A DNA stretch of 64,000 nucleotides from assembly GCF_018977255.1 (NCBI RefSeq), contig NW_024704742.1:51648001-51712000 (forward strand), read 5' to 3'. Each line of letters starts with the position of its first letter. Within the stretch, counting starts at the first letter, position 1. The notes beneath the pieces were generated by a model that saw nothing but the letters and a program-made list of their open reading frames with translations, was not told the origin of the DNA and made no database searches. Origin of the DNA: Callorhinchus milii (Eukaryota). Below are positions 5,669 to 43,290 of this stretch, piece after piece. A program made the position numbers and the translations under genes.

Positions 5669-5704
5669 CATATTACAAATGGAAGCGATGTTTCTGACAG
5701 TCAT
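5669..5704 (-). CDS. USP46: ubiquitin carboxyl-terminal hydrolase 46, first coding exon; I found no further exons, so the rest of the gene presumably lies left of the window
   Basis: 36 nt encode MTVRNIASICNM, identical to the recalled vertebrate USP46 N-terminus. A phase-0 donor ATG|GTGAGT follows at once (intron starts at 5668). CpG-rich context, and SNORA26 nearby as at the human locus. Confidence 0.95.
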
Positions 5705-15161: not shown

Positions 15162-15777
15162 GGAGTCCTGTAGCTCAGTGGTTAGAGCACTCGTTTCACA
15201 AGCGAGAGACCTGAGTTCGATTCCCGGCAGGGTGAAATCTTGGGCAAGTTTCCTTACTCCAGATGCCTGATAATAATCCCTTAAGAAAAAAAAAACAGTA
15301 ATAATTTGGTCACTCAATCCATGACTGCTGAAAGCAATTGGCTGCTGCGTTTCGTCCACACATATACAGTCAATTTGTGTTACAGTATATTCTGTGATGC
15401 GCTTTGAGACGTTAAGGGCTTTGAGATGTTACAGGACCACAAGTGAGAGGAACCTGGGTTTGATTCCCGGTAGGGCGAAACGTTGGCCAAGTTTCCTTAC
15501 TCCACATGCCTCTGTTTACCTAGCAGTAAGTATCAGCGGTTGTCAGTCGATTGGCGTACTGCTTTTCCGGGGGTAATAATTCTTTCAAAATAAATAAAAA
15601 TAATTTGATCACTCAATCCATGACTGTTTGTGGGACACTGCTGTGCGCATTTGGCTGCTGCGTTTTGCCCACAAAATATACAGTCAATTCACTTTACGGT
15701 ATATGCCATGAAGCGCTTTGAGACGTCTCGAAGACGTGATAAGGTGCTATATCAAATGCAAGGATTATTATTATTAT
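15162..15777 (+). mobile_element. two tandem tRNA-derived SINEs (short 15162-~15428; long, 5'-damaged ~15430-15777)
   Basis: Head, body and (TAT)n tail match the family. Confidence 0.85.
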
Positions 15778-18994: not shown

Positions 18995-20347
18995 GGAGTC
19001 CTGTAGCTCGGTGGTTAGAGCACTCGCCTCGCAAACGAGAGACCTGGGTTCAATTCCCGGCAGGGCGAAATGTTGAGCAAGCTTCCTTACTCCACATGCC
19101 TCTGTTTACCTAGCAATAAGTAGGAATTCGGTTGTTAGTCAATTGGCGAATCGCTTTTCCGATGGTAATACTCTACCTTTCCTCCTCTACCCTCAACTCC
19201 ACGACCACCGATGTCCTGACAGCTGCCTGTCCGACATCGAGTCCTGGACGAGAGACAACTTTCTTCAGCTCAACGTGCGCAAAACTGAGGCCCTCCTGAT
19301 TGGCTCACGTCAGCGCCTCCGCACCTCAGGCGCTGACAGCATCAGCATCCAAGGCTGCACTCTCCACCTCTCAAAGCCAGTCAGGAACCTCGGCGTTTTG
19401 TTCGACCCTGAGCTGTCCTTTCTCCCTCATATCCGCGCCACAACTGGCACCGCCTTCCATCACCTCCGGAACATTGCCAGATTACGGCACTACCTCACCC
19501 CTCACGCTGCTGAAACTCTGGTCCACGCCTTTATCACCTCAAGGCTGGACTATGGGAACTCTCTCCTCGCCGGCCTTCCCGCCACCTCCCTCCACAAGCT
19601 GCAGGTCATTCAGAACTCTGCAGCTCGTGTACTGTCCCGCACCAGGCTTCGCAACCACATCACTCCCACCCTCGCTCGCCTCCACTGGCTCCCCATCCCC
19701 CAGAGGATCGAATTCAAGATCCTCACCCTCACCTACAAGGCCATTCACAGCCTCGCTCCCTCCTACCTCTCCAACCTACTATCCCCCTACCTACCCGCCC
19801 GTACCCTCCGTTCCTCTGGCTCCGGTCTGCTCCACATCCCCCGCCCCAACCACCCTACCATCGGTGGCCGAGCCTTCAGCCTCTCAGCCCTGAGACTCTG
19901 GAACTCTATCCCCCAGTGCCTTCGCCGCCTCCTCCCTTTCCTCCTTCAAGGCCGGTCTCAAGACCTTTCTCTTTGACCGTGCCTTCAGCTCCCCTCTCGA
20001 CTCTCTACCCCCTCCTCGCTCCCTCCCTTCCCTCCCCTCACCCTGACCATTTCCCCCCTTGCTCGGGTCCTGACCCAACTGTACAGCGCCTTGGGACGTC
20101 CTCCCGACGTGAAAGGCGCTCAATAAATGGAATCTTGTTGTTGTTGTTGTAATAATTCCTTAAAACAAAAAATTTGGTTCCTTCGATCCACGACTGTTTA
20201 TGGGATGCTGATGTGCACAATTGGCTGCCGTGTTTCGCCTAAAAATATACAATCAATTTGCTTTACAGTATATTCTGTGAAGCGCTTTGAGACGTCTAGA
20301 AGACCTGATAAGACGCTATATCAAATGCAAGGATTATCATTATTATT
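18995..20347 (+). mobile_element. long-form SINE split by an L2 insertion (SINE parts 18995-19170 and 20150-20347)
   Basis: The SINE sequence resumes exactly after the L2 tail. (G)TAATA is duplicated at 19165-19170 and 20149-20154. Confidence 0.9.
19171..20149 (+). mobile_element. young 5'-truncated L2 LINE (end of RT + C-terminus + 3' tail)
   Basis: The ORF reads CLSDIESW..NFLQLN..KTE...VRNLGVLFD...SRLDYGNSLL.GLP...LHWLP...LWNS.P and ends in a (TTG)n tail. Confidence 0.95.
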
Positions 20348-23943: not shown

Positions 23944-24367
23944 CAGCCACTGTCCCCGCCCCCCACAGCCAGTGCCCCGCCCCCCACAGCCAGTGCCCCG
24001 CCCACCGCCCCGCCTCCCACAGCCACTGTCCCCGCCCCCACAGCCAGTGCCCCGCCCACCGCCCCGCCCCCCACAGCCAGTGCCCCGCCCACCGCCCCGC
24101 CCCCCACAGCCAGAGTCCCCGCCCCCCACAGCCAGTGCCCCGCCCACCGCCCCGCCCACCCACAGCCAGAGTCCCCGCCCCCCACAGCCAGTGTCCCCGC
24201 CCCCCACAGCCAGTGCCCCGCCCACCGCCCCGCCCCCCACAGCCAGAGTCCCCGCCCCCCACAGCCAGTGCCCCGCCCACCGCCCCGCCCCCCACAGCCA
24301 GAGTCCCCGCCCCCACAGCCAGTGCCCCGCCCACCGCCCCGCCCCCCACAGCCAGTGCCCCGCCCCC
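23944..24367. repeat. GC-box minisatellite (CACAGCCAG(T/AGT) + CCCCGCCC units) directly upstream of the snoRNA-host TSS
   Basis: About 420 bp of tandem units containing roughly 30 CCGCCC hexamers. Confidence 0.95.
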
Positions 24368-24411
24368 TTGCGTCGCTCTGGCGGGTGTGAGTCTGCGCGG
24401 GGCTGGAGCGG

Positions 24412-24443
24412 CCCTCTTGCAGTAAGATGGCGGCCGGTGTCGG
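24412..24443 (+). promoter_or_regulatory. probable TSS / first exon of the snoRNA host: pyrimidine start CCCTCTT, YY1 motif AAGATGGCGGC and 5' splice site
   Basis: CCCTCTT at 24412-24418 (TCT/5'TOP-like), AAGATGGCGGC at 24424-24434 and CGG|GTGAGT with the intron starting at 24444. The context is a CpG island. Confidence 0.7.
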
Positions 24444-25539
24444 GTGAGTGGAGCGCGCGCTCTCACAGTTCGCGTTATTTTTAAACCAAAGCAGTCGATA
24501 TTAAACTGAAAAAACATACGGCACAAACTGTGCAGACATTGCAATGCGACCGCCGCTGTGTGAGCTCGTTCCTACCCCCCCCCCCCCCCCACAGGGAGGG
24601 CTTGTGAGACCGGCTGAGCGACATGAGGCCTGGTCTCCCTCACACACTCACACACAACAGTCCTCAGTGTAGTGACCACCCGCTTTGCTGCCTGTCCCGG
24701 CGGGGGTCCGTGCCCTGGGCATGGTGAGGGGCAGGAGGGCAGGTCACAGCTGTGGGCGGTGCCGGGCCTGATCCCGGGCCTCTCTCGGCCACCACGTGGC
24801 TGAGCTCGAGGTGTTCCCTTCTGCCGGTTCAGGAGGGAGTGGCTCCATCCGCACCAACAGAGTCTGTGCTCATGCGGTGTCTGAGCCGACCCTTCCTTCC
24901 TTCCTCACCGCTGCCGTTCCTCAGTTACAATGTGATTATTCTCACAACAGTAGTTTCTTGGTCAGTTTACATTTCACTGACGTTTTCTCGTAAGATTTGC
25001 CCCATTCCACCCTTTATTTGAATATCTTGTCTCTATGTATGTACAGTACCACGCTCAATAAAATGAAAGGAGGTCATAGACTGATCCATAATTAATCTGC
25101 TTTGCCAAATTTGTACCCTTCACTATTCTATGGCCGCGTAGCATCTGTAGGTGGAATAATTTTAAAGGTCACCTATGACATTGAATGATAATGGCACATA
25201 GGAGAGTTAGCATCGTTTTCACGTTCCTTTCTCCCATTTCATCCGCATGGAAGCATGAGGTTCTGGGCAGTTGAAATGAAAAGCGGGTTTGTAATTCTAC
25301 ATGTCCTGTATCTGAGAGGAATGGCTTGAATTTGCTGTAAGAGGGTGAATTATTGGCTTGCCGTTCTGTAACAGGATGAATTGGGTACTGGATAGAAAAA
25401 TAGAATCTCAGCTGTGATGTAAAATAAAAACTTGCTGTAATGAGGTCACCTACACTTACTCATTTCTATCATGTCTTTCTACAACCCCTCTTCTCCCCCA
25501 CGGAATACTTGTGGAAATTCCAGGGTTTGAAATCAGAAT

Positions 25540-28500
25540 GCACATAGGTCATCGAATGTTTAAGGAGGTGGTCACCCCACAGCCAAAGAGGGTTCAGAAG
25601 GAGAATGAGTGGGTGACCACCCGGCATGGTTGGAAGGGGGGAACGGGCAGTACAGAAATTCCCTGAGAGTGTGGCACTCACAAACCGGATCTCTGTACTG
25701 AATACCGGTCAGGGCGATGACACCTCTGGGAAGGGGAGTCAAATGCAATTGTCATTGGGGACATAATGGTGAAAGGAGTAGACAGGTGTTTCTGCAACCA
25801 TAGACATGACTCTTGCATGGTATGTTGCCTCCCTGGTGCCAGGGTTGAAGACATCATGGAATGGGTGCAAAACTAGGGGGAACATCCAGAAGTCATGGTC
25901 CATGTTGGGATCCCTGACGTACGGAAAAAAAGGGCTGAGATCCCGTCAGGGAGAGTATCAGAAGCTAGGGAAAAGGCTAAAGAGTAGGACCTGAAAGGTG
26001 GTGATCTCTGGATTACTCCCAGTGCCTCGTGCAAGTGAGTATCAAAACAGTAGGATGAAACTCATGAATGCATGGCCTGAGAAATGGTGCAGAAAAGAGG
26101 GCTTCAGGTTCTTGAATCATTGGGAACAGTTTTGGGGCAGGTGGAACCTATACAAGGTGGATGGGTTTTTCCTGAACAGGACTGGGGCCAATGTCCTCGC
26201 AGGGAGGTTAACTCGTGCTGTGGGGAAGGGAATCAGGATATAGCATTTGAGAGGACAAACAAGTTACATAGAGGGCTGAGAGCGACAAATAGCAATGTAA
26301 TAAGGAGAAATCCAGAAAAAGGAGGGATTAGACGGGGGAGAAATGCAGAGCAGACTAAGTTGGTCTTGGAGTGCATGTGTGTAAATGCATGGGGTGTGAC
26401 GAATAAGATTGGTGAGCTGCAGGCTCAAGTTGCCACATGGAGTTATGATGATGTTCCAATAACGGAGACCTGGCTCAAACAAGAGCAGGAATTGGAGCTG
26501 AATATTCCTGGCTACAATGCATTCAGGAGGGATAGGGAAGGAAAAAAGGGAGTGCAGGTGGCAATATTGATTAAAGACATGGTTACGGCCCTGGAAAGGG
26601 ACGAAGTGCTAGCTGTTGCTCTGTTAGGTGTATACTGTAGACTACCTTTGGGAGAGACTAATAGAAATGTAATAAGTAATAATCCAGAAAAGGGAGGGAT
26701 TAGATGGGGGAGAATTGCAGAACAGACTTAAGTTCTCATCTCAGTACTTCTATAAAATCCATACTCTTTGGCTCTCGTCAACATCCAAATCTCACGGTTC
26801 TCACCTCCACCTACCCGATCTCCCCCTAAAACTCTCCGAACCTGTACGCAACCTAGGCGTCAGGTTCGACCCCCAATTATCCTTCCTCCCCCACATCCGG
26901 TCCCTCACCAGCGCCGCTTTCTTCCATCTCCGACGCATCGCCCATCTCCACCAGTACATCTCTCCGAAAGCCTCTGAAACCCTGGTCCATGCCTTTGTCA
27001 CCTCTCGGCTAAACTATTCAAACGCCCTCCTCGCCGGCCTCCCATCCACTACCATCCATAAAATCCAGATTATTCAAAACTGCCACCCGCATTCTCACCC
27101 GCACCAAACTCCGCTCCCCGATCACCCCAGCCCTTGCCAGACTGCACTGGCTGCCTATCCCAGAGAGGATCAACTGCAAGATCCTCACCCTTGTATTCAA
27201 ATCCCTCCACTTTTCTGCACCCCCCTGTCTCTCTGACCTCCTCAAAACAGTGCCCGTTGCCTTCATTCCTCTGGGTCTGGCCTCCTCCTTGTCCCTCGAG
27301 TCCTCCGCTCCACCCTTGGTGGCTGTGCCTTCAGCCATTATGCCCAGAGGCTATGGAACTCCCTTCCTCACTCCCTTCGCCTCACCCCCTCTCTTCCTAT
27401 TTTCAGGTCTCTGCTGAAGACCTTCCTTTTCGACCTTTGGTCATCTTCCTCCCCCTCTCCCTGGCTCGGCCCCGGGATCCGTTACGGTGAAGCGCTCTGA
27501 GATGCCGTCCGGCGTGGAGGCTGCTATATAAATCCAAGTTGTTATTACCAAATAGCGGGAAGGAGATAGACAAGCAAATCTGCAAGCAGATTTCAGGAAG
27601 ATGGAAAACCCAATAGAGTAGTGATAATGGGGGGGCTTCAATTATCCTATCATAGCCTGGCAAAATAACAATGTAAAGGGCAAGGAGGAGGAAGGATTCC
27701 TGAAATGTGTGCAGGATAACTTTCTGGATCAGTATGTTTCCAACCCAACAAGGAGGGAAGCAGTGCTGGATCTGGTTCTGGGGAAAGAAGTAGGGCAAGT
27801 GGAGCAGGTTTCAGTAGGAGAGCACCTGGACAACGGTGATCACAACATCATTAGGTTTAGAGTACTTATGGAAAGGGACAAGGAGTAATCAAAGGTGAAG
27901 ATACTCAACTGGGAGAGGGCTAATTTTAGTGAGTTAAAAAGGGACCGAGCCAAGGTGGACTGGAAAGAAAGATTGGCAGGTAAAACAGCTAATGAGCAAT
28001 GGGAAGCCTTCAAGGAGGTCATAGTTCGGGGACAGAACAAATAGATTCCCACAAAGGGCAAAGGTAGGGCATCCAAACCTCCCTGGATGAATAAGGAAAT
28101 TGGGATTAAAATAAAACAGAAAAGGGAGGCTTATGATAAATGTCAGGTCCAAAATACCGGAAATAATCAAATAGAATATAGAAAGTACAGAGGAGAACTG
28201 AAAAAGGAGGGGCAAAGAGATTGTATGAGAAAAGATTAGCGGGTAACATCAAAGGGAACCCTGAGGTATTTTATAAGCATATAAAGAATAAAAGGTTTGT
28301 CAAAGGTAGGGTGAGTTCAATGAGAGGCCAAAGAGGGAATCTTCTTGTGGAGGCAGAGGGCATGGCTGACATACTGAATGAGTACTTTGCATCTGTCTTC
28401 ACAAAACAAGAGGATGCAACCAATACTGTATCGGAGGAGAGTAGAGAAATTGGATAAGATAAGAATAAGCCGAGAGGAGGTACTGATAAGATTGTCAGTA

Positions 28501-29860
28501 CTCGAGGTAGATCAGTCTTCCTGTCCGAATTGGATGCATCCTAGGTTACTGAGGGAAGTAAAGGTGAAAATAGCAAAGGCTCTGGCCACAATCTTTCAAT
28601 CCTCCTTGGACACCGGGGTGGTACCAGAGGACTGGAGGGTTGCAAATGTTACTCCCCTGTACAAAAAGGGGCAGAAGAATAAACCAGGAACTACAGGCCA
28701 GTCAGCCTAGCGTCATTAGTGGGGAAACTTCTAGTGACTATAATGTGGGACAAAATTAATTTTCACTTAGCAAAATATGGCTTAAAGGACAGGCAACACG
28801 GATTTGTTAAAGGCAAATCATGTCTAACAAACCTGACGAGTTTTTTGATGAAGTAACGGAGAAGGTGGATGAAGGTAGTGCAGTTGATGTAGTTTATATG
28901 GATTTTTAAAAGGCGTTTGATAAAGTGCCACATAAGAGACTTGTGAGCAAAATCAAAGCCCACGGTATTAAAGAGACAGTGGCAGCATTGGTTACAGAAC
29001 TGGCTGGGAGACAGATAGCAGAGAGTGCTGGTGAATGGTTGTTTTTCTGACAGGAGGGAAGACATGGACAGACATGTGGCAGATGACGGTTAATGTGGAG
29101 TGATACGTTTCAGAAGGAAGAATTAGGAGAGGCGTTATAAGCTTGAAGATACAATCTTAAAGGGGCTGAAGGGGCAGAGAGACCTGGGGTTTATATAAGT
29201 AAATCTTTGAAGGTGGCAGGACAGATAGATAAAGCTGTTAAAAAAGCATACAGGCTACTCGGCTTTATAAATAGGGACATAGAATACAAAAGTCAGGAAG
29301 TTATCATAAACCTTTATAAAACACTGGTTAGGCCTCAGCTAGAGACTGTGTTCAGTTCTGGGCCTCCCCACATTTTGGGAAGGATGTCAAGGCATTGGAG
29401 AGGGTACAAAGGAAATTTACCAGGAATGAGGAACTTCAGTTATCAGGAGAGACTAGAGAAACTAGGATTATTCTCCTTGGAGCAGAGAAGGTTAAGAGGA
29501 GACTTAATAGAAGTTTTCAAAATTATGAGGGGTTCAATAGGATGAACAAGGAGAAACTATTTCCACTGGCGGGTGGAAGTAACCCAAGGGCACCGATTTA
29601 AAATAGTTGTTAAAAGAAATGGGAGGTGAGGAGAAATTTTTTCACACAGTGAGTTCGGATCTGGAATGCATTGCCTGAAAGGGTGGTGGAAACCGATTCC
29701 GTAACAACTTTTAAGAGAAGTAGATAATTATTTAGGGAGGACAAGTTTGCAGGGGCTATAGGGAGAGCGGGGGAGTGGGATTGAATTGGATAACTCTTTT
29801 CAAAGAGCCGGCACAGACACGATGGGCCGAATGGGGGGGGCGCATCCTGCTTTAATAATT
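25540..29860 (+). mobile_element. decayed near-full-length CR1 LINE (ORF1 esterase, APE endonuclease, RT, 3' UTR) in a host-gene intron
   Basis: ORF1 reads VIGD..V.G.D..FC, MVCCLPGARV and LN..GANVLA. The endonuclease reads CVNA, ITETWL, IPGY..FRRDR and MGGFNYP. The RT region reads VPEDWRVANVTPLYKKG and QHGF.KGKSCLTNL. The C-terminus reads LYKTLVRPQLE and LEQRRLRGDLIEVFKI. Confidence 0.93.
26736..27545 (+). mobile_element. 5'-truncated L2 (second subfamily, 'L2-B') nested in the CR1
   Basis: Translates as VRNLGVRFDPQLSF..HI...SRLNYSNALLAGLP and ends in TATATAAATCCAAGTTGTTAT. TACC is duplicated at 26643-26646 and 27546-27549. Confidence 0.9.
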
Positions 29861-30184
29861 CTGGAGTGAATTAGACACAGGTTGGAAACAAGTAAGACTT
29901 AGGATCCTCAGAGTATGTATTGAGGTAATGGGCTGCAGTTTTAATCTGTATAGCCTGTCATTCAAAGTGTTTGCCCTCCCCGATCTCCTTTGTTTCAAGC
30001 AGTATCCTATTTTTTGGTTAAAAATGTTATTTTTATGTAGGGTGCATATGCAGCTGATTTGCATTGATGAAGATTGTCAGAATGAATGAATCTGAAAGTA
30101 ATAATGGACTATGAGGTATGGATAATCAATTTCTCTTAAAACTAAAGTATCTGTCTGCATACCTTAATAATAATTAATAAATAA

Positions 30185-30317
30185 TCCCTTTCCAGCTTTG
30201 CCCATTTGAGACCGACTGTGTCTTTAAGTGGCCAACACAGAAGGGTAAATAATTTTCTCTCAAAAACCCAAAGTAAAAGGTTTGTCAGTGCTTTGGATCC
30301 TGTCGGGAGAAACATTT
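30185..30317 (+). ncRNA. SNORA26: H/ACA snoRNA SNORA26, copy 1
   Basis: Two hairpins (CCCTT..AAGGG; TCTC..GAGA), H box AAATAA at 30247-30252 and ACA at 30312-30314. Contains the recalled SNORA26 signatures AACACAGAAGGG, AAAACCCA and CTTTGGATCCTGTC. Confidence 0.88.
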
Positions 30318-30840
30318 TCTACATAAAACTAGTTAAAATAAATATTTATGAAGGTGACATTTCAGATGTACAATTTCTACATCTGTTCAATTTGTTATGG
30401 TAGGGTTTCTGTTCATATTTATAACTGATTGTCACCATTAACAATATATTCTAAAGTATTCGTTGGTAACTAATTAAGCTTGAAAAGATACTTTATTAAC
30501 CCGTCCTTTGAATGTAATGTCTTGTCATTAAGAATACACCACAGAACCATCATAACTGTAGGTTTCATATTGCATGTGTGAGAGTTTGCATTTTCTCATG
30601 GATATGTACATGTCCTGCCAATTATAGCTTAAATTACAATTAAGGATGGTGAAACCTGATGTAAATAATATTATAATAATAAATGTTTGAAATGTTGGTA
30701 CTAAAATCTTGTGCAAAAAAACAATGATTTTGCTTTTATTACAGAAATTGAATAAACTGATCTGTCCTGGAAACGGAAAGCTGTAGCAAATGTTACTTTG
30801 GCGTATATGAGGTATGACGAGTAAATTAAACTTTCTTTTG

Positions 30841-30974
30841 GTCCCCTTCCAGCTTTGCCCATCTAAGGCTAACTGTGCCTTAAAGTGGCCAACACAGAGG
30901 GGAAGATTGTTTTCTCTCTAAAACCCTAAGCAAAAATATTGTTTGTGCTTTGGATCCTGTCGAGAGGAACAATG
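30841..30974 (+). ncRNA. SNORA26: H/ACA snoRNA SNORA26, copy 2 (non-canonical H box AGATTG)
   Basis: TAAAAC and CCTGTC pocket strands are complementary to the recalled 28S sequence GACAGGUUAGUUUUA. ACA at 30969-30971. Confidence 0.82.
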
Positions 30975-31602
30975 ATATTTTCTCTTCTTGAAATGAATGC
31001 TTTGGTAGCTTTACAATTGCTGCAACAACAAATGAATGAGGAATTCAGTGTACCAATGTAGATAGAATGCAGAAATGACTAACAAATTGACATGTTTGAA
31101 AGCCTACATAAAACTAGGTTAGTTTTATGTAGGCTTTCATATAACATCCATAGAATAAAACTATGGATATTATATATTATGACTAGCACACAGCCTCTTT
31201 ATCACCTTACACCATTTATAATAATGGATTCTGATTGGGAGTCATGTCTATATAATGATTTTCTATTTCTGCAAGCTGTCGACAGTAAACTGAAAACTCG
31301 ACCACTTGAGTTGTCATGCTGTCAATATCCCGGCCGCATTTCTTTATATATTTATACATATGCTTAACCTACCACTTCTGATAAAATCACTAAGACCCTT
31401 TCCCTTGGAGTGACGAGTATCCTATTCTTTGGTTAAAAATGTTATTTTTATGTAGGGTGCACATGCAGCTGATTTGCATTGATGAAGATTGTCAGAATGA
31501 ATGAATCTGAAAGTAATACTGGACCATGAGGTATGGGTGATCAATTTCTCTTAAAACTAAAGTATCTGTCTGCATATCTTAATAATAATTAATGAATAAT
31601 AA

Positions 31603-31734
31603 TCCCTTTCCAGCTTTGCCCATTTGAGACCGACTGTGTCTTAAGTGGCCAACACAGAAGGGTAAATAATTTTCTCTCAAAAACCCAAAGTAAAAGGTTT
31701 GTCAGTGCTTTGGATCCTGTCGGGAGAAACATTT
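31603..31734 (+). ncRNA. SNORA26: H/ACA snoRNA SNORA26, copy 3 (duplicate of copy 1)
   Basis: As copy 1; ACA at 31729-31731. Confidence 0.88.
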
Positions 31735-32257
31735 TCTACATAAAACTAGTTAAAATAAATATTTATGAAGGTGACATTTCAGATGTACAATTTCTACATC
31801 TGTTCAATTTGTTATGGTAGGGTTTCTGTTCATATTTATAACTGATTGTCACCATTAACAATATATTCTAAAGTATTCGTTGGTAACTAATTAAGCTTGA
31901 AAAGATACTTTATTAACCCGTCCTTTGAATGTAATGTCTTGTCATTAAGAATACACCACAGCACCATCATAACTGTAGGTTTCATATTGCATGTGTGAGA
32001 GTTTGCATTTTCTCATGGATATGTACATGTCCTGCCAATTATAGCTTAAATTAAAATTAAGGATGGTGAAACCTGATGTAAATAATATTATAATAATGAA
32101 TGTTTGAAATGTTGGTACTAAAATCTTGTGCAAAAAACCAATGATTTTGTTTTTATTACAGAAATTGAATAAACTGATCTGTCCTGGAAACGGAAAGCTG
32201 TAGCAAATGTTACTTTGGAGTATATGAGGTACGACGAGTAAATTAAACTTTCTTTTG

Positions 32258-32391
32258 GTCCCCTTCCAGCTTTGCCCATCTAAGGCTAACTGTGCCTTAA
32301 AGTGGCCAACACAGAGGGGAAGATTGTTTTCTCTCTAAAACCCTAAGCAAAAATATTGTTTGTGCTTTGGATCCTGTCGAGAGGAACAATG
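32258..32391 (+). ncRNA. SNORA26: H/ACA snoRNA SNORA26, copy 4 (duplicate of copy 2)
   Basis: As copy 2; ACA at 32386-32388. Confidence 0.82.
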
Positions 32392-33074
32392 ATATTTTCT
32401 CTTCTTGAAATGAATGCTTTGGTAGCTTTACAATTGCTGCAACAACAAATGAATGAGGAATTCAGTGTACCAATGTAGATAGAATGCAGAAATGACTAAC
32501 AAATTGACATGTTTGAAAGCCTACATAAAACTAGGTTAGTTTTATGTAGGCTTTCATATAACATCCATAGAATAAAACCATGGATATTACATATTGTGAC
32601 TAGCACACAGCCTCTTTATCACCTTACACCATTTATAATAATGGATTCTGATTGGGAGTCATGTCTATATAATGATTTTCTATTTCTGCAAGCTGTCGAC
32701 AGTAAACTCCTGAAAACTCGACCACTTGAGTTGTCATGCTGTCAATATCCCGGCCGCATTTCTTTATATATTTATACATATGCCTAACCTACCACTTCTG
32801 ATAAAATCACTAAGACCCTTTCCCTTGGAGTGACGAGTTATCAGGAATTTATTGTATTTGCATGTTGTTATTTATGATTATTTATTTGATGTGAAAGTGA
32901 ACTATTTTATAGTTTGCTTGCAGTACCGGCAAAGAAATGAAGTTATGACCATGATTTTACTTGGAACATGATTTATCTGGTGGTGTGAAAATGTTTATTC
33001 AGTACTCAGTTAGTGGCACAGTGTAGGGCAAGAGATGGGGGAGAGATAAAGAAAACGGAGGGAGGGAAATAGAA

Positions 33075-33258
33075 AACAACAAAATTAAATTTGTAAAGTG
33101 CCTTTCCCACCAGGAGGACATCCCAAGCCACTAAACAGTCCAGGGATCAGGACCCGACTCGGTGGGGGGTTGGTGGTGGCAGGGTTGGGGTGGGGGGGAG
33201 GTAGAGAGGTAGGAGGGAGGCTGAAGGCATGTTTGAAACGGAGGATCTTGAAGGAGGC
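33075..33258 (-). mobile_element. L2 3' tail fragment
   Basis: CAACAAAATTA..GTGCCTTTC..CAGGAGGACATCCCAAG is the reverse complement of the L2 tail. Confidence 0.7.
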
Positions 33259-33455
33259 AAATATGCTTTGGACCCTGTCGAGAGGAAAACTCTACAAAGT
33301 ATTTGAGACTTGGACAGAAAGAGAGAGAATGGCTTAGATCAGTGGTAATATAGTCATAATGTTATGCAAGAATTTTTTGGTGACTGCTACAGACAATTTA
33401 TTCTATATGGTGACCAAATCTGCAGTGTTAAATATATAAATGCAAATTGTTGTTG

Positions 33456-33665
33456 GCCCCGTTTGCCATCAAAGAAAACTGCTCTGAAGTGGCCAACAGA
33501 AGCGATAGGCTCAGATTTTTCTCTTAAAACCCAAGGTAAACCCTGCCCCCATCCCCGGCTCGGCGTTGTGCTCCAGCACTGTCAAGTTCTATGGGACACC
33601 ACCCTGCGTGAGGGGCGCTATATAAATGCAAGTTGTTCTAAAAGGTCACATGTATAACCCAAGGA
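33456..33665 (+). pseudogene. decayed SNORA26 copy 5, interrupted by an L2-type 3' tail (33541-33638)
   Basis: AAGTGGCCAACAG and CTCTTAAAACCCAAGGTAAA are retained, but the GGATCCTGTC arm is missing. TAAA is duplicated around the insert. Confidence 0.7.
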
Positions 33666-33989
33666 ATCAACCATCACAGCAGTGCTTCCCACATCTTTTG
33701 AATCACTTCCTTATCCTCAGTGCAGATTACGGTTTCTATTCTTATTACCGTTGGTTTAAGGGCTTCTATAAGTGAAAGGCTAACATGGATAGGTGGCAAG
33801 AAACTGAACGCAGATGGAAAAACTGGAACTTGAGAAGCACATTAACTGGATTTTTTTTGGTTGAACTAATTTGCTTTTCTTCACACAGAGGTCAAATACA
33901 TTAGATGGACTAACAAAGAGCTGCCATTATACCGGGTCTTGAAATTTTCGAGATCAATATGAGGTATGAATTTAACTGTCCATTTTCCA

Positions 33990-34123
33990 TGCCCTTTCCA
34001 GCTTTGCCCATCTAAGATGAACCATGTCTTAAGTGGCCAACACAAAAGGGTAGAGCAGATTCTCTCTAAAACCCAAAGCAAAAGATCATGTCTATGCTTT
34101 GGATCCTGTCGAGAGGAACAATG
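33990..34123 (+). ncRNA. SNORA26: H/ACA snoRNA SNORA26, copy 6
   Basis: Canonical H box AGAGCA, TAAAAC/CCTGTC pocket, and ACA at 34118-34120. Confidence 0.9.
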
Positions 34124-34804
34124 GTGTTTTCTCTTGTTGAAATTAATTGCGTTGGTAGCTTTACTATTGCTGCAACATCAAATGAATGAGAAATTCAGTG
34201 TACCAATGTAGAATTAACTGACTAATTGACATGTTTGAAAGCCTTTCAAGGATGTTATATGTTGTGACTATCCTCTGTGTCACCTTACAATGTTTACAAT
34301 GGATTCTAATTTGGAGTTGTATCTACATAATGATTTTCTATTTCTGCACCCTGTCTACGGTAAACTCCTGAAAACTTGACCACTTGTGTTGTGCTGTCAA
34401 TATCACAGCCTTATTTATTTAGTTATTTATATATATGCCTAACCCGTCCTCCTGATAACATCACTAAGCCCCCTTTCCCTTGAAGTGATGAGTTATCAGG
34501 AGCTTATTGTATTTGCATGTTTACTATTTACCTTCCATGTGAAAGTTTGAGCTTAGGGTGTGTTGCAATACAAGCAAAGAAATGTAGTTATGATCATGAT
34601 TTTATTTGGAACATGATTTATCAGTGATACTTAGTAATCAGTGTAGGAGTAATCAGTTAGTGGTAAGAGATGGGGAGAGATGAAGAAAACAGGGAGAGAA
34701 AATGAAAATCTTACAAAGTTGGTGAGACGGGCAGTGTGATACTCTAGTTATAATGTTATGGAAGAATTTTTTGGTTACTGCGAAAGGTAATCTATTCTAT
34801 TCTA

Positions 34805-34890
34805 AACTGTTCTGAAGTGGCCAACAGAAAAGACATGGCAGATTTTTTTCTAAAACCCAAGGTAAAAAGTCACATGTATAACCACAACAG
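34805..34890 (+). pseudogene. decayed SNORA26 copy 7
   Basis: AAGTGGCCAACAG...TTCTAAAACCCAAGGTAAAA is present, but the 5' and 3' arms are lost. Paralogous to copy 5. Confidence 0.65.
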
Positions 34891-35208
34891 CAATGGTTCC
34901 GCATCTTTTGAATCACTTCCTTATCCTCAATGCAGATTATGGTTTCTCTATTTTTATTACCGTTAGTTTAAGGGCTTCTGTAAGTGAAAGGCTGGCATGG
35001 ATAGGGGGCAAGAAACTGAACTGAATGCAGATGAAACAACTGGAATTTGAGAAGCATATTAACTTTTTTGGGGGGTTGAACTAATTTCCTTTTCTTCGTA
35101 CAGGTACTCAAACACATCAGATGGAGTAGCAAAGAGCTGCCATAATGCCGTGTCTTGAAACTTTTGAGACCAATATGAGGTATGAATTATTTAAGTGTCC
35201 ATTTTCAA

Positions 35209-35336
35209 TGCCCTTTCCAGCTTTGCCCATCTAAGATAAACCATGTCTTAAGTGGCCAACACGGTAGAGCAGATTCTATCAAAAACCCAGAGTAAAAGAT
35301 CATGTCGGTGCTTTGGATCCTGTCGGGATCACATTC
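35209..35336 (+). ncRNA. SNORA26: H/ACA snoRNA SNORA26, copy 8 (about 5-nt deletion in the 5' basal stem)
   Basis: H box AGAGCA, GGATCCTGTC and ACA at 35331-35333. AACACAAAAGGG is reduced to AACACGG. Confidence 0.75.
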
Positions 35337-35559
35337 AATTTCATTGTACTTTAATGCGTTTCAAAGCAATGTGACCAAAAGAAAACTGGTGAAGATAAAA
35401 TGAAAATAAGCATAGAAAACTCTGCTATTCATGTCCCCTCGAGTATTACAGTGCTATTATAATTGGTTCCCTGTTCTTGCAGGAGGTGAATAAAGTAGAC
35501 CAGGAACAAGTAAATGCAAGTTTATGGAAAACAGTTGCAGGAAGATGGTATGAAAATAT

Positions 35560-35920
35560 ATTCGAGTTCAAAATCCCTTTCTTCAAATTCCTCTACAGTC
35601 TTGCCCCACCGTACCTCAGACTGTACCAACCCATTCATTCAGTGGGCACCAGCTTGCTTCATGCTCGCTACCCGAACGTTGGCAGTCGGGCTCTCAGCCT
35701 ATCTCACTCCCTAGTCTGGAACTCCATACCGGAATCCCTCCCGACTCCCACGCTCACCTCTTGAAAAGTCAGTCAAAACCTTCCTCTTTGACCAAACCTT
35801 CAGTCATCTCTCTCTTCCCTCCCCCCCCGACTCCCACTCCAGCTTGGGTGCCAGCCAGGACTGTCGAGTGCCTTGGGACATCCTCCCAACATGAAAGGTG
35901 CTATGTAAATTTGTATTGTA
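35560..35920 (+). mobile_element. old L2 3' fragment
   Basis: Translates as FEFKI..FKFLYSLAPPYL...VGSRALS...WNSIP, followed by an L2 tail. Confidence 0.75.
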
Positions 35921-37900
35921 TTCTACACATTTATAAAATAGAAAGGAACCTATTGATCCACCTGTCCAGTTTTGCAAATGTTAAATTACTACTGTTTACA
36001 ATAAATGGGATGGATTACCACAAATGTGCTTGTGCTCTGTTTCTTGACTTTACATTGAGCTGGATTCAGAACTGGAATTTGCCTTACTCCCCAGGAATGT
36101 TCAATAAGTTATGTTTTCATATCTAAAAACTGGTGGCACATGCACAGAACTTAAAAATTGATTGTTTCTTCTGAATTTGATGTGATATGTAAATTGGATT
36201 GGAAAATATTAACTGGGATTTAATTTCCACATTTACCGCCGACGTGAAACCCGCCATACAAATGTAGTTTTGTTGTTGCAACACAAGTGTTGTATAGGAC
36301 GCATATGTCTAAAGTGACCTGTTTTGCAGCACTTCCCCCGTCAAAATTAAATTGATGGGTATTTCTCAGATATTTTAACGCTTGCCTGGACTTTTAAAGT
36401 GCAAATTGTTAAAGGTGGAAAGGTGATTTCACATCTTCGAATTGTCATGTCTTACTCCTTTTTTCCTAGTGATTGTGACCATGTTTAAACATATTATGCT
36501 TTGTGTACCAGAAACATTATGATTTGGAATCTTTTTCCTATATTTTATCGTAGCTGAACCATTCATTCATTGATGGTAAAATGAGAAGGATATAGGAATA
36601 AATATGGAGGGCATTCACTCCATTCTCTGGATGTTCCTGGGGATCTTGGACTTATGCCACATGTCTGGATATTTGAATTGTGGTCATCTAAGACCTTTAT
36701 TGAAAATTACCCAATAAATGAACTAATATTAAATAAGTATGTTCTATTTTGGTCAACCTTTATATGCTGGTATTAAGCCTTGCAAGTTATATTACTATTG
36801 ATTACGGATTTAAAAATCTATGACCCAGTTACCTCTGTATTTGGCAATTTGGTTTGATGGTTGCTGGCTGCCGTTTTGAAGTGATGTATCAGCCACATGT
36901 ATTGTAGATGTGATGTATTATAGATTTTGGTTGCACCCCAGTTGTGCTATAAACCTGTGATAGGTGTTCTTTACCATGGTTCCATTACATCTGTGGTATC
37001 CATAAAGAATGCCATTTAGGAAAGCTGGAATGATTCGGAATCTTCACTAGACATAGGATGATAATTGTACTTTCAAAAAAATAGGTGGAATGCTTTATAA
37101 TAATAATATCCTTGCATTTGATATAGCGCCTTATCACATCTTTGAGACGTCTCAAAGCATTTCATAGAATTTACTGTGAAATGAATTGACTGTATATTTT
37201 GTGCTTTAGTGCTAGAAACTAAAATGAATAGAAGAGATGAATTGAGAACTTTTGGTGGGTTATTGCTGAGTTTGGGTTTTAAAGGTTTATATTGTAGGAG
37301 GAAAGAAACCATGAAAGAACTGCAGTCTTAGGGCCCTGGTGCAATGAGTCATGTCTACACAGGATCAATTTGTGTAGACTACTAGATAGTTTTCCAAATA
37401 CAATCATTGATTCAGCTCAGAATTAAGTTAAAATAACATTTAGTTATTCTTAGTATCATTTCTTTGTGGTAAAATTGTCTTCATTCAATTGGGAGCACTC
37501 TAGTCTCTGGGTCAAAAGATTCTTAGATCAAGCCCTACATTACAAGTATAGTATAGTCTGATGCTCCACTACAGCACTGAGGGGCGTTAGCATTATTGTT
37601 AGAAAGTGTTCAGGTGGATGTTACAGATTCTGTGACTATTTGAAAAAAAGCTTTTTCCAGGTGGCCTGTCCAACATCCTCCAGTTATTTGGTTATTCACT
37701 GTGTGGTACCTAATTGGTCACAAATTGGGCTGTGTTAGCCCGAGTGTTTTGAGATACTGTTTTTAGGCGCTATATGAACTGCAAGGGTTATTTGGGGTTA
37801 TGCATAATCTGTGAGACATGGAAATGTTTGAAATGTAATGGTAGCTTGCATGATGGGATCAGATTCCAACATGCATGCACCTGCTACAACATGGTAGTCA

Positions 37901-38105
37901 CATAATAATAATAATTTGATATAGCGCTTTTCACGTCTTCTAGACGTCTCAAAGCGCTTCACAGAATATACTATAAAGTGAATTGACTGTATATTTGTGG
38001 GCGAACGCGGCAGCCAATTGCGCACAGCAATGTCCCACAAACAGTCGTAGATTGAAAATGGCCAATTTATTATTGTTTTTTTTTGGAGGGATTATTATTA
38101 GGCGT
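37901..38105 (-). mobile_element. 5'-truncated SINE (short form, older tail); another 3' fragment at 37097-37205
   Basis: Matches the family 3' half and (TAT)n tail. Confidence 0.85.
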
Positions 38106-39079
38106 AATATCACACTATCAGCACTGAAATAGCAGAACTGAAAAATAAAACGTACTGGGAAGAAACGGGTTTCCACTTTTATACCACCTCTTGTATGAGG
38201 TAAACACTGAGGTTGCATTGCACGTACGCTGCATGTGACAGGTGGTGCCTGTGTTCATCAGCTTCTAACATCGTGCTATATGCACGTTGACTGTCCATGC
38301 TTGGCTTCTTGGCTTGCATGTTTGCAGGCAATAGCTGAATTCACAGTAAATATTTCCAATTGGTTAGCTTACAATAATGGTTGTTGCAATAAGCTTAGCA
38401 GAGGAACTTTATACATATGAAGTGAGACAGCATTTCCCTCTGGAAGTTTATAATTTCATAACATTGCCATTTTCATTGCTAATCGTTTCTGAATTTAAAA
38501 ACGAGTTTCTTAAAAGAGAAACCTCCAAAGCCATATTAAATATATAGGCCGCAGATGATATTTTACATTTCTTCAGGTACTAATTTTGAATCCACTGACT
38601 CGTATAAAAGTGGGGAAAAATCTAGAAGATGATGGCTGCAAAAAGCAATGGATATTGATCTGTTTTACTGGACTGAGCTGCTGAATTTAAGATCTTTGTC
38701 TAAGCAAATATTCATCTTCACGCTGTGAGTCACCTGACCATGATCTTGAGTACAATCTGAAGAATATTGGACTGATTTGCTGGAGATCATCATCTGAAGA
38801 ACTAGTGACTGCCTTGGCACTATTTCAAGGAAATTCAAGAGTAGAAAATGCTATTATCTGCACAGCTCATTTGCTTAATCTGTATGAGTATTCTGACGGA
38901 AGATATTCATGTAGATGAACGGGCTTTAATTTTATTGCTTACTTTGAACTTTCTTGGAAAAAATAGGATGTCAATGATATCTGACATGAGCCAACTGTGA
39001 CCAATTGGTTTATGTGGTATTGTCTCAGTAATTACAAGTACAAGTGCATTGACACAGCCTACATCTGAAGGGGGGGGTA

Positions 39080-39325
39080 AATTCAGAACAAATCTGCGGA
39101 AGCACTACTTCAATGAGAGTTATGAATGTATGGAATAGGCTCTCTTGGGAGACAGTGAAAGCAGAAAATGTAATTTGTTTCAAGAAAAAATTAGATTTCT
39201 GCTAGAAAATAATATCTTGGGATAGTGTATAGTTTGGGACACGACAAGCAACTGCCAGGATGGTGGAAGACGAACTAGATGGAACTTGGTCTTCCTTCGC
39301 CTATCAGATTCTTAGGTTCTTATGC
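39080..39325 (+). mobile_element. old CR1 3' fragment
   Basis: HYF..RV.N.WN.L coding remnant and a GAACTAGATGG...TTCTTAGGTTCTTATG tail. Confidence 0.6.
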
Positions 39326-39684
39326 TATAGGATTGTTTGGGCAGAATTATGTCACCCTTGAGAAGAAAATATTAAACCATGCTTAAAAAGCTCAAAAGTA
39401 CTTGACATTTAGGAGCTCAACTATATCAGGCAAAATCCTTTTTCAAATTAGCAAGAGGTGATTAATGTTTTTGGTCGGTTCTTTCAATAAGCTATAATAA
39501 TTTGCTTTGTTTTGAAAAGCTGTGCTCAAATGTTTGTGAGTTACATGCTGCTTTGTATGTATTTAAAAATAAATAAGTAATTTATACACAAAACATCTGA
39601 CTTTCAATTACCATGACAGAATTGCAGGCTTGTTAACCAATAGTGAGTGAAGTAATGTGACAAACGCATGCAGCAGGTTTTCAG

Positions 39685-40010
39685 AAGTGGCGGAGAGGAG
39701 GATGGCCCGGTCAACTGTCAAACGCTACAAAGAGATCCAGGAGGACGAGGAGGCAGAGGGAGTGCTGGTCACAAATAGAGGATGTTTGTGACTGACCAGC
39801 GCTGTCTCTGCTGTGGGCAGGGCGAAAACCAGATTGCAAGGGCTCGAGGAGGGAGTGGAGGGAGAGGTATGACCGAAGTTGACCTGCAACAATGGGTTCC
39901 ATGACTGGCAAGGAAGGGTTGGAAATGGGATGGTAGTGTGAGAGATTAGAGGGAACACGGTTGTTTTTTTTGAGGAGGGGCGCGAGCATACATGGGATGC
40001 ACACAAGATC
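39685..40010 (-). mobile_element. L2 RT fragment
   Basis: Translates as PLLKK...LSHYHPISN...LLEPLQSGFRPAHS...LLVLLDL..AFDS. Confidence 0.8.
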
Positions 40011-40189
40011 TTGATGTTTCAACTGCCTCTTCGTTTTTGGATCTAAATCTAATGCAGCTAAGTCTTACCTCAGCTGCGATGTTTCATGTGACCTTTTCCA
40101 AGCTGTGATCTATCCAAAACAAGCTCAGCTCATGGATCTAAACCTGCACAACCGATTTAATCTGAATTTGCAAATTGTGTTCCTTTTGG

Positions 40190-40618
40190 TATTGGCTTGT
40201 TTGTTTGGTAGCATTCTTGCCTGAATCTGAAGGATGTGGGTTTAAGGCCATCGCCTGAACTTGTCCAGGCTGACAATCCACTCCAGTGCTGGATTACATT
40301 GTTAGAATATACATTGTTAGAAGTAGCACCTTCTGATGAGAATTGAAATTGAATGAATTGAGAATTGAAATTGAAGGTGGCTCTTGAGATGTATGTTAAG
40401 GATACTGTATGTTGTGGCACTATTTAAAAATAGGTTATTGTGTCCTGGTGCAGATAAAATTGGTGTATCTCTTAATGGCTGACTGGAATATTGCTGTGTG
40501 AAAATTACTGCTGCATTTGCCTAAAATAGTCATTTGCTTTACAGTAAAATCCTGTGAAGCCCTTGAAGTTTCAATAATGTGAAAAGATGCTTTATCAAAT
40601 GGAAATATTTTTATTATA
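40190..40618 (+). mobile_element. old Deu-domain SINE; related copies at about 37480-37790 and 60355-60640
   Basis: Head (GGTAGCA..CTGAATCTGAAGG.TGTGGGTT), Deu-like GCACCTTCTGATGAGA and the shared tail. Confidence 0.6.
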
Positions 40619-41142
40619 TGTAATTGATTTCTGAGTTTCACTGCTTTTACAGCAGATATCCATGTTGCTTTGCAGGGAGAAGAAAATTCTCATTTGATCC
40701 CTTATTTCATATTTGCAATGGAATCTTAAATTAGATTCCTGGTTTATCCTAATTCCCTTTGTCTGAGGAAATTTTGATCTGTTTACAAACTTGTACAATT
40801 TGTAGCAGTTAATGTTAAGTATTGAATAACTTTAATAGGACATCTGTACATAATTTTGTTCAAAGAATCCAGCTGTACTATAGACAGATACCTTTGTAAT
40901 TTTGGTGCAAAATCTTCCAAGTACAATTTATACATCTGAAAATTTCCAGCTGCCTTTTCAATCTATAGTGTTTATGTTTGAACAAATATTTACAAAGTTT
41001 TGCATTATTTAGTGTATGAAAATGGCTGACAATTTGACAACTCAGTATTTGCAACAAAATCTGAGACAAATGTCTTCATGTTCTGTCAAGATTGAGCACA
41101 GTGATTCACTACCCAGTGAATTTGAAAACAAACAGTTTATTA

Positions 41143-43290
41143 TAGGAACATAAGAAGGAACATAGGAACACGAAGAGGCCGTTAAGCCCTTCGAGCCTGT
41201 TCCACCATTTAATTAGATCATGGCTGATCGGTACCTCAGGTAATCCTGTCAATTCCAATTTCCCACTTTCTCCCCATATCCCTTAATATCCTGACCTATC
41301 AAAATCTATCAATCTCACTCTTGAAGGTGAGGCTGGATCCAGCTTCCATGGCCCTTAGCAGGAGAGAATTCCAGATTGCTCCCACCCTTTGAGTGAAAAA
41401 ATGCTTCCTGATTTCACTCTTAAATGACCTGGCTCTAATTTTAAGACTGTGACCCTTGTTTTGGATTCCCCCACCAGAGGAAATAGCTTCTCTGTATCTA
41501 CTGTATCAAATCCCTTTATCATCTTTAATACCTCAATCAAATCACCCCTCAACCTTCTAAACTCAAGGGAATACAATCCAGGTTTACGCAGCCTTTCCTC
41601 GTAACTTAACCCTCTTGGGACTGTAACATTCTGGTGAACCTGTGCTGCACCCCCTCCAGGGCCAATATATCTTTCCTGAGGTGTGGTACCCAGAACTAAA
41701 TGCAGTACTCCAGATGGGATCTGACTGACGCTCTATACAGCTGAAGCATCATCTCTTCTCCTTTGCATTCCAGACCCCTTGAGATAAAGGCCAATATTCC
41801 ATTCACCTTTTTGATTACTTTTTGCACCTGGGAACTAGTTTTTAGTGATTTGTGGATATGGACATCCAAATCTCTTTGCTCCTCCACAGTTCTTAATTTC
41901 TCCCCATTAAGAAAATATTCAGCTTTATCTTTTTGACCTCACACTTCCCTACATTGAACTCCATCTGCCACAGCTTTGCCCACTCACTTAATCCTGTCTA
42001 AATCTCTTTGTAACTTCCTACTCCCATCTACACAATTTACTGAGCCTCTTAGCTTAGTGGAATCTGCAAACTTGGATATACAACTTTCTAGTCCTTCATC
42101 CCAGTCATTTATATGGCGAATAACTGGAGTCCCAGTACAGACCCCTGGGGGACACCACTTGTCACATCTCACCAATCAGAGAACATTCCCTTTATCCCTC
42201 CTCTCTGGTTCCTGCCCCCCAACCAATTACCAAGCCACGTCACAAGGTTACCTCCGACTCCATGCGCTTCCATTTTCGCTAATATTCTTTTGTGTGGAAC
42301 CTTATGTGTGGAAACGCCTCCTCTGTCATCACCACCATATCCTCCATGAAGCTCACCACCTACTCCCTGGACCCCATCCCCATTCCTCTCCTTAAATCCC
42401 AACTCCACCTCCTTGCCCCACTACTCGCTGACATCATCAACTTCTCGCTGTCATCTGGCACTGTTCCTACACCCCTCAAAACAGCCACTATCAAACCCCA
42501 CCTTGAAGAAACCTACCGGCCCATCTTGCTCCTCCCTTTACTGTCTAAGGTCCTTGAGAGAGCCGTCGCCTCCCAACTTTGCTCTTTCCTTTCCTCCCAC
42601 TCCCTCATTAAGCCCCTCCAATCGTGTTTCCGTGCTGCCTTTTCCCTTTAAAATCCAATCATATTATGATCACTATTTGCAAGATGTTCCCTTACTGTCA
42701 GATTGTTAACTAGTTCTGGCTCATTACTCATCACCAAACCCAATATGGCTTGTTCCCTTATTGATTCTAAAACATATTGTTCCAAAAAACTATCGTGAAT
42801 ACATTTTAGAAATTTGTTGCCTTTACTACCTGAGGTGTCCTTCTTCTCCCAGTCTATGTGAAAATTAAAATCTCCCATTATAACCACGTTATAGAGGTCT
42901 TGCTCTATAGCTTTTGCTACATGCTTCCCTGATCTCTATTGATACATTTCCCCAGTATATCACAACTCTCTGGAGGCCTGTGGACTACTCCCAACAGAGT
43001 CTTACCTCCTTTGCTGTTCCTTAATTCTACCCACCGTGTTTCCACTATCTGATCACCCTTACTGAACTCTTTCCTTTCCACTGCTGTAATAGTGTCTTTT
43101 AATCAATATTGCTACTCCCCCTTTCCCAATATCCCTGCCTTTTCTAAAGATCTTATAGTCCTGCCCAGCTTATAACCAGGTCTCTGCAATGGCCACTACA
43201 TCATACCTTTAAGCTAAATTTGTGCTTCTAACTCACTTGTTTTATTTCTTATGCTTCGTGTGTTTGTGTACATAACTCTTATTTGGGTAA
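41143..43290 (-). mobile_element. decayed CR1 LINE whose internal deletion is occupied by a plus-strand L2 RT fragment (~42315-42640)
   Basis: Minus strand reads VIMGDFN, ILGLVMSNE, SDHNMI, KVPHKR, ISKFADSTKL and LEFRRLRGDLIEV, with a (CATA/GGAA)-type tail at 41143-41170. The insert reads LDPIP..LLK...L.DIIN.SLSSG.VP..LK.A. Confidence 0.9.

Follow-up and report, generated by a model that had tools for sequence, protein, structure and literature searches.

SNORA26 copies and their host gene

This report concerns a window of 64,000 nucleotides (nt) from the chimaera Callorhinchus milii (NCBI RefSeq assembly GCF_018977255.1, contig NW_024704742.1, positions 51,648,001 to 51,712,000 of the forward strand), in which we examined an array of H/ACA small nucleolar RNAs (snoRNAs) of the SNORA26 family. 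Each snoRNA follows a short exon of what is probably a spliced noncoding host gene of the DANCR type (Table 1, with positions counted from the first letter of the window). An initial annotation of the letters had assigned the copies to SNORA26, and this identity was borne out by the Rfam covariance model of the family (RF00568, cut-off 40 bits). Five of the six full copies reach the score threshold, with matches starting at 30198, 30855, 31616, 32272, and 34004 that score 68-81 bits, and the sixth, copy D, falls just under it at 39.9 bits (35223-35336, E 2.7e-4). A profile of the six copies, searched with nhmmer, added three fragments at 34805-34871, 33462-33540, and 33263-33290 (E 7e-8, 2e-6, and 3e-4), while the remaining 22 of its 31 rows in the window have E values of 0.04 or worse and contribute no further SNORA26 traces. 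Copy counts and profile searches alike cover the 64-kb window. The traces therein number nine, six full copies and three fragments, so that of the eight copies first proposed the six complete ones stand and the total does not. The array of SNORA26-family H/ACA RNAs is real.

Table 1. Features of the SNORA26 locus, in order along the window
Feature	Position	Strand	Remarks
Divergent gene, first coding exon	5669..5704	-	12 codons, then GT
Candidate host first exon	24373..24443	+	CpG-rich; ends GG/GTGAGT; start position guessed
Recent tandem duplication, copy 1	30001..31418	+	Exon a, snoRNA A, exon b, snoRNA B
Exon a	30041..30115	+	75 nt; AG/GT ends; copy-1 alleles in X8 contig, aligned part stops at donor
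snoRNA A	30186..30317	+	132 nt; canonical H and ACA boxes, both pockets; Rfam 68.4 bits
Exon b	30745..30811	+	67 nt; copy-1 allele in X5, X8, and X12 contigs
snoRNA B	30843..30974	+	132 nt; both pockets; H box with G at position 6, noncanonical; Rfam 74.4 bits
Recent tandem duplication, copy 2	31416..32838	+	Exon a', snoRNA A', exon b', snoRNA B'; alleles of both copies in RNA-like contigs
Exon a'	31456..31530	+	75 nt; AG/GT ends; contig support
snoRNA A'	31604..31734	+	131 nt; canonical boxes, both pockets; Rfam 71.6 bits; fold z -2.6
Exon b'	32162..32228	+	67 nt; donor GTACG; contig support
snoRNA B'	32260..32391	+	Identical to B, 0 differences; Rfam 74.4 bits
Fragment, SNORA26 3' end	33263..33290	+	Directly behind repeat insertion; missing from paralogous intron; nhmmer E 3.4e-4
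Decayed 3'-truncated SNORA26 copy	33462..33540	+	nhmmer E 1.9e-6
Exon c	33889..33963	+	75 nt; identical to exon d at 62/75
snoRNA C	33992..34123	+	132 nt; canonical boxes; apparent B/D chimera; Rfam 81.1 bits
5' pocket, copy C	33999..34039	+	33999-34007 pairs with 18S 1179-1187; 34037-34039 pairs with 1174-1176
Decayed truncated copy, paralogue of 33462-33540	34805..34871	+	nhmmer E 7.1e-8; alignment
Exon d	35104..35179	+	76 nt; X8 record 24, on 35102-35179, ends at donor
snoRNA D	35211..35336	+	126 nt; 5-nt deletion; 39.9 bits; probably decaying
Exon e	35483..35547	+	65 nt; no snoRNA behind
Probable last exon	38577..39590	+	AATAAA near 39568; 3' end approximate

Every full copy lies 28-73 nt behind an AG-GT exon of 67-76 nt that ends in ATGAG/GTA, with gaps from donor to snoRNA of 70, 31, 73, 31, 28, and 31 nt in array order. 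The initial annotation was right about the exon and its ending and slightly off in the gaps, which it gave as 26-72 nt. ATGAGGTA occurs seven times on the plus strand of the window and not once on its minus strand, and six of these seven occurrences are the six exon ends. The exon bodies had been called diverged and indeed are, with a, b, c/d, and e being unrelated; nine of ten pairs score z -0.7 to 2.3 and only c/d is significant. Adding exon e, the probable last exon, and a candidate first exon (GC content 0.64, CpG observed/expected ratio 0.67) gives a predicted spliced RNA of 1585 nt with a longest ATG frame of 50 codons, and the frame from the candidate first exon runs for 21 codons and stops in exon a. 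Five frames tried in 30500-36200 returned 0 Pfam matches, leaving no sign of protein coding by the array. A noncoding host of the DANCR type, as originally suggested, is supported and probable. In vertebrates, elephant shark among them, DANCR is reported to be flanked by USP46 and RASL11B (PMC12694859). No Ras-type Pfam match appeared among 371 reading frames of the window, and RASL11B may lie beyond it.

Two other readings of small features were set aside. A C/D-box reading of exon a has its UGAUGA and CUGA merely 21 nt apart, and no SNORD match was found in 24000-42000 at E up to 5. MicroRNA-family matches at 31092 and 32509 score far under their cut-offs and are located on a palindrome. This near-perfect palindrome of 43 nt (31097-31139 and 32514-32556) sits within a stretch of about 54 nt that has no counterpart in the paralogous intron following snoRNA C and is perhaps a tiny hairpin insertion.

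RNA fold and predicted guide pockets

A motif common to all six copies begins with CCC 12 nt upstream of the Rfam start. In the predicted fold, this motif and the purine run that precedes the hinge form the pairs that close the 5' hairpin. With this motif included, the RNAs measure 131-132 nt (126 nt for D); judged from these copies, the Rfam model clips 12 nt off their 5' end, out of register. A fold of hairpin, hinge, hairpin, and tail is supported by the consensus fold and by pair counts. When both pockets are kept open, 91% of the cells in the consensus structure are paired compared with 38-55% in slid controls, and three base pairs change on both sides across the copies. Folded singly, A, A', B, and C each form two hairpins, and D adopts a different fold. 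Copies A, A', and C have a canonical H box (ANANNA, expected about 14-16 nt from the pocket) at 15 nt from the 5' pocket, and the ACA box lies 14-15 nt from the 3' pocket in all six copies. Copy D retains its H box, with the spacing from pocket to H box shortened to 10 nt by the 5-nt deletion. Since this loss breaks the lower stem of the 5' hairpin and alters the fold, copy D is probably decaying.

The two pockets point to two different ribosomal RNAs. In the 5' hairpin, arms of 9 nt and 3 nt are the same in all six copies and could form 9+3 base pairs with 18S rRNA, framing the first U of GG-U-UGCAAAGCUG. The supplement of PMC6984369 marks that U as the pseudouridine at human 1177, found in the vertebrates mapped there, and labels it xtSNORA26a. 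The geometry is exact, with two target bases unpaired and 15 nt to the H box (34052-34057 in copy C). When the 5' pocket was scanned against seven ribosomal DNA (rDNA) loci, this U ranked first in all seven with a score of 12, compared with 6-9.5 for the next best site, and 2 of 300 shuffled pockets equalled its target score. For the 3' pocket of copy C, the 28S-4522 context ranks first in six of the seven loci and none of 300 shuffles matches it. The pairing is 6+7 with one bulged guide base, the left arm being 5 nt in A, A', and D, and the target agrees with the 28S text of PMC6984369. Across A, B, C, and D, 24 of 24 pocket columns are invariant compared with 63 of 107 other columns (p 2e-5), a test that is partly circular because the conserved columns were noticed first. 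A 14-nt scan of viral contigs had also returned 120 stretches, which were taken as chance matches and left unused.

On this evidence each full copy is a predicted dual guide, with the 5' hairpin directed to 18S-U1177 and the 3' hairpin to 28S-U4522 in human numbering, a property that the initial annotation missed. A less generous interpretation would keep the 5' hairpin for its structure or for some other target and let the RNAs guide only 28S-4522, like human SNORA26. The right arm of 3 bp is short, single mismatches can kill a pocket (PMC6984369), and the target scan covered rDNA, with spliceosomal small nuclear RNAs and transfer RNAs (tRNAs) as further conceivable targets. Set against this are the 9-nt loop arm, which is invariant even among the oldest copies although their stems differ, the exact distances to the two unpaired target bases and the H box, the assignment of this very site to a Xenopus copy of the SNORA26 family, and the observation that weak elements can be fully active (PMC6984369 for both). 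We therefore regard a guide restricted to 28S-4522 as improbable.

The dual-guide prediction has its own difficulties, and these, together with the circularity just mentioned, weigh against it. In the 5' pocket, the right arm reaches a mismatch after 3 contiguous pairs. The rDNA loci were fetched by a pattern holding the 18S site, which is therefore present by construction, so that for the 5' pocket the evidence comes down to the ranking and the shuffle count. These loci are those of other eukaryotes, supplemented with human and frog rRNA text, and none is the chimaera's own; three of the seven scanned were confirmed as small- and large-subunit rDNA. Covariation is weak with five distinct sequences, four of five measures being reached by 7-14 of 500 shuffles and the fifth by 138 of 500. 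The H box of B and B' departs from the canonical form by the G at its sixth place.

Transcription and growth of the array

Contigs from three RNA-like sequencing runs (X5, X8, and X12) and one DNA-like run (X1) bear on splicing of the host. Distances of variants from contig ends place the aligned ends at the donors of a' and b', and in the X8 record that ends at the exon d donor the 66 preceding letters are unaligned in that row. One contig depth per run (61.8 in X5, 17.4 in X8, and 102.6 in X12) recurs at two places, 32219, where the exon b allele is that of copy 1, and 31462, where the exon a' allele is that of copy 2. At 31519 the X8 depth of 17.4 does not appear, and the two variants of exon a are carried there by two other contigs. 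This pairing of alleles and depths is most simply read as a splice from b to a', by which both young copies would be transcribed; alternatively, a single unit could be back-spliced. Farther downstream, contigs of X5, X8, and X12 cover 38596-39101 of the last exon and X8 reaches 39482. In several intron bins the depth of X8 and X12 drops to zero although X1 continues, which is a weak hint only, and the depth of X5 is high over the snoRNA A' bin, a value unfit for ranking copies.

Some contig ends raise questions of their own. X1 has about 61 extra letters at 38597 and the contigs of X5, X8, and X12 carry unaligned letters before 38596, so that the last exon may truly begin in sequence absent from the window. 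Past 35809 an X1 contig continues for 954 unaligned letters, perhaps an insertion polymorphism, and X8 and X12 contigs cover 35577-35959 behind exon e, a partly repeat-like stretch that could reflect intron retention or an alternative 3' end.

The youngest step in the growth of the array is a tandem duplication. Segments 30001-31418 and 31416-32838 are 98.2% identical, with 19 substitutions and 7 gap columns, and the 3-nt microhomology AGT is found at entry, junction, and exit of the duplication. The unit of 1.4 kb comprises two exons and two snoRNAs and begins 40 nt before an acceptor. By eye, the long first intron of the host (25500-29900) consists mostly of fragments resembling long interspersed nuclear elements, and the duplication begins about 100 nt after these fragments, 40 nt before exon a.

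Could the 98% pair be an assembly artefact, with two haplotypes placed in tandem and a true array of four full copies? A substitution divergence of 1.3% would lie within the allelic range, and the first X1 record, a point against the duplication, has 146 unaligned letters followed by a single unit to 32845 and no junction. However, the contig of depth 17.4 in X8 takes in the last part of exon b and the first part of exon a' but not the end of a', which needs a join from b to a', and the same allele pairing recurs in X5 and X12, making three studies in all. The X1 contig also mixes alleles like a collapsed repeat, with the copy-1 allele at 12 of 19 sites and the other 7 not listed as differing from copy 2. 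Its depth of 15.1 is 1.4 times the flank median, a weak measure given that contig depth is no copy number, and compares with modelled values of 10.9 for one copy and 14.1 or 17.4 for one or two duplicated haplotypes. We consider such an artefact very unlikely and treat the pair as a tandem duplication.

An intermediate event is visible between 32260-34114 and 33992-35328, which align at 74-85% such that the stretch from B' to C matches the stretch from C to D. The truncated copy within the B'-C intron was duplicated along with it. The 100 nt upstream of C are 82.5% like those of D and 51% like those of B, whereas the 100 nt downstream are 83% like those of B and 49% like those of D. Within the snoRNA, the last site at which C equals D is column 109, and at all 12 informative sites from column 110 on C equals B; seven scattered earlier sites where C equals B include D's own deletion and substitutions. 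Copy C thus reads as a chimera, with a D-type upstream flank and body joined to a B-type 3' tail and downstream intron, and the switch between columns 109 and 110 would put the crossover at the invariant 17-nt motif of the 3' pocket. Older still is a phase of which little remains. The flanks of A, B, and D are at background similarity (46-52%), and the oldest exon types share only their last bases and donor, which suggests old common descent of these exon ends.

The three duplication ages of the initial annotation (98.2%, 74-85%, and ancient) are all recovered in these comparisons, with the correction that the near-identical pair duplicates two exons and two snoRNAs and not a single unit. Likewise, exons were copied together with snoRNAs as it held, and the serial copying of one fixed cassette gives way to two datable events with different units and breakpoint types. 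As the alignments have it, the exons travelled with the snoRNAs by different routes and not as one repeated cassette.

A multi-copy dual-guide array, grown stepwise within a DANCR-type host gene, is the best explanation of the locus, and we assign it a probability of about 75%. One RNA polymerase II transcript, probably starting in the CpG-rich stretch near 24.4 kb, would be spliced through the short exons, and each of six introns would release an H/ACA RNA of 126-132 nt. Types A, B, and D, whose flanks are unrelated, would be what remains of an ancient phase. B and D may then have crossed over unequally within the 17-nt 3' motif that they share, which made the chimeric C and duplicated an exon, and the recent tandem duplication, joined at a microhomology, would have copied the A-B pair along with a 3' splice site. 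Selection would keep the pockets and stems while exons drift and surplus copies decay. If the crossover did fall inside the snoRNA motif, the conserved snoRNAs would themselves be the recombination substrate.

Other considerations lower our confidence in this explanation. The contig comparison took in 4 of 24 sequencing runs on 31340-39700, a range downstream of the candidate first exon, whose join to exon a is a prediction. The RNA labels of runs X5-X14 are guessed, and the small runs X15-X18, with 5-8% of the words, do not count as evidence. Noise from short interspersed nuclear elements (SINEs) filled the junction table, and all exon joins are inferred from contigs. Finally, the divergent 12-codon exon is the putative start of USP46, and a PDB search with a 20-residue USP46-like start gave no match.

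The remainder of the window holds a few unrelated features. At 58594-58815 on the plus strand is an isolated last-exon piece of the AP-4 subunit mu-1, identical at 70 of 72 residues to Callorhinchus milii AP4M1 (97%) and 64-66% identical to the shark and ray proteins listed, in agreement with a chimaera as the source of the window. It sits between a SINE and a purine-rich repeat, and with no other AP4M1 exon among the frames scanned it may be a displaced duplicate. Of twelve matches to tRNA models across the window (18997-19068 and 15164-15235, for example), those aligned share one head sequence and those read in context continue into the body of a common repeat, which makes them resemble the heads of one SINE family and not tRNA genes. 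A weak DDE_Tnp_4 match under its cut-off (22.7 bits, 53334-53534, plus strand) marks a transposase remnant.

Probable turnover, known systems, and significance

What the expansion does for the animal can be approached through the rates at which its parts change. Exons c and d are identical at 62 of 75 positions (82.7%) and their flanking intron at 516 of 595 (86.7%; Fisher p 0.37), while snoRNAs C and D agree at 107 of 114 (93.9%). Exons that diverge like introns fit the role of spacers that had been proposed for them. The opposing idea, that the spliced host RNA has its own function as a long noncoding RNA (lncRNA) or through a micropeptide, draws on the partial rescue of a promoter deletion by mature zebrafish dancr (PMC12694859) and on the 21-codon frame that the candidate first exon opens in the predicted transcript. 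That frame stops upstream of many junctions, though, no ATG frame is longer than the 50 codons noted above, exon identity between c and d is no higher than intron identity, and the other exon bodies bear no relation to one another. We find this idea doubtful at best, and the exons are better taken as spacers.

The snoRNAs of the recent pair took none of the 19 substitutions in 264 bases compared with 15 in 1012 intron bases (p 0.051), along with one single-base indel in snoRNA A. These numbers, with pockets invariant in all six copies, might be claimed for an adaptive dosage amplifier, in which extra copies are selected for more guide output per transcript, a gain in output that the initial annotation had inferred, and new copies may already be constrained. 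Yet gene conversion among the snoRNAs could also yield a p value of 0.051, two copies suffice in frogs, and families with several copies are common outside mammals (PMC6984369, PMC2653536). With copy D damaged and the three fragments dead, turnover is favored over selected dosage. Amplification for dosage is in our judgment unlikely, and a birth-and-death process, with selection maintaining at least some working copies, explains the locus more economically.

Loci with more than one copy had been published before this one, Xenopus having two (PMC6984369) and zebrafish dancr holding two snoRNAs (PMC12694859). In Xenopus tropicalis, snoRA26x (xtSNORA26a) is predicted to guide at two sites, equivalent to human 18S-1177 and 28S-4522; the two frog copies are 136-138 nt long, with snoRA26x at 136 nt and about 700 bp from the second copy. 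The chimaera RNAs resemble it in family, in predicted dual guidance, and in their near-equal length (131-132 nt compared with 136 nt). In contrast to the frog, where one of two copies has the 18S element, all six chimaera copies carry it, with the pockets being matched by target and not aligned. PMC6984369 states that the 18S-1177 element is absent from the SNORA26 copies of other species and that a guide for this conserved pseudouridine was found only in Xenopus; the word "shark" is absent from its main text. No later guide for human 18S-1177 emerged from the literature searched, including a term search of the accessible text of PMC11863803, PMC9941101, PMC11880993, and bioRxiv 10.64898/2026.08.10.743918, with subscription papers and bioRxiv supplements outside its scope.

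Human SNORA26 (HBI-6) shares with the chimaera copies the 3' hairpin, the 28S-4522 pocket, and the 3' half of the 5' hairpin, all of which fit the RF00568 consensus, and probably also the position next to USP46 as part of DANCR. It differs in being a single copy of 122 nt, and the consensus differs in lacking the 9-nt 18S arm. Because the Rfam model truncates the RNAs across this arm, the element may have been overlooked. Zebrafish dancr (PMC12694859) is likewise syntenic and made of several exons. It holds two H/ACA RNAs of the clan, snora26 and snora27, where the chimaera array has six. Elephant shark is among the species with a positional DANCR in the same paper.

Outside this family, cis-duplicated intronic snoRNA paralogues with a gas5-like expansion hotspot have been described by Shao et al. 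(PMC2653536), the SNORD115/116 tandem arrays gain and lose copies by nonallelic recombination (reviewed in PMC11028025), and neutral exon evolution is reported for host lncRNAs (PMC11405852). Intragenic duplication, gain and loss by nonallelic recombination, and pseudogene remnants are common to the first two systems and the chimaera locus. What sets the latter apart is a small H/ACA array whose breakpoints, a crossover in a snoRNA and a microhomology junction, are still readable. Multi-copy intronic snoRNAs are ordinary, and the array alone is a modest new instance. No description of it was found in the literature searched, most subscription papers being outside that scope. New are the six 18S-1177 elements outside Xenopus and the crossover mapped inside a snoRNA.

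A chimaera locus with six such elements would date the 18S-1177 element to the base of the jawed vertebrates, and the 18S-U1177 pocket is probably ancestral to that group. We lean slightly toward a fuller scenario in which the SNORA26 of the jawed-vertebrate ancestor was a dual guide whose 18S arm was kept in the chimaera (six of six copies) and the frog (one copy) and lost from the human copy. The conserved human 1177 pseudouridine would then be placed by a replacement guide. If so, the second small RNA of the DANCR locus (snora27 in zebrafish, the position of MIR4449 in human) would be the first place to seek that replacement, and the chimaera copies show what a lost or diverged human 18S-1177 guide should look like. 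The breakpoints, in turn, offer a readable case of a host lncRNA gaining exons and snoRNAs. If the proposed crossover is correct, a conserved snoRNA would have seeded its own amplification through an invariant antisense motif, adding lncRNA exons as a by-product.

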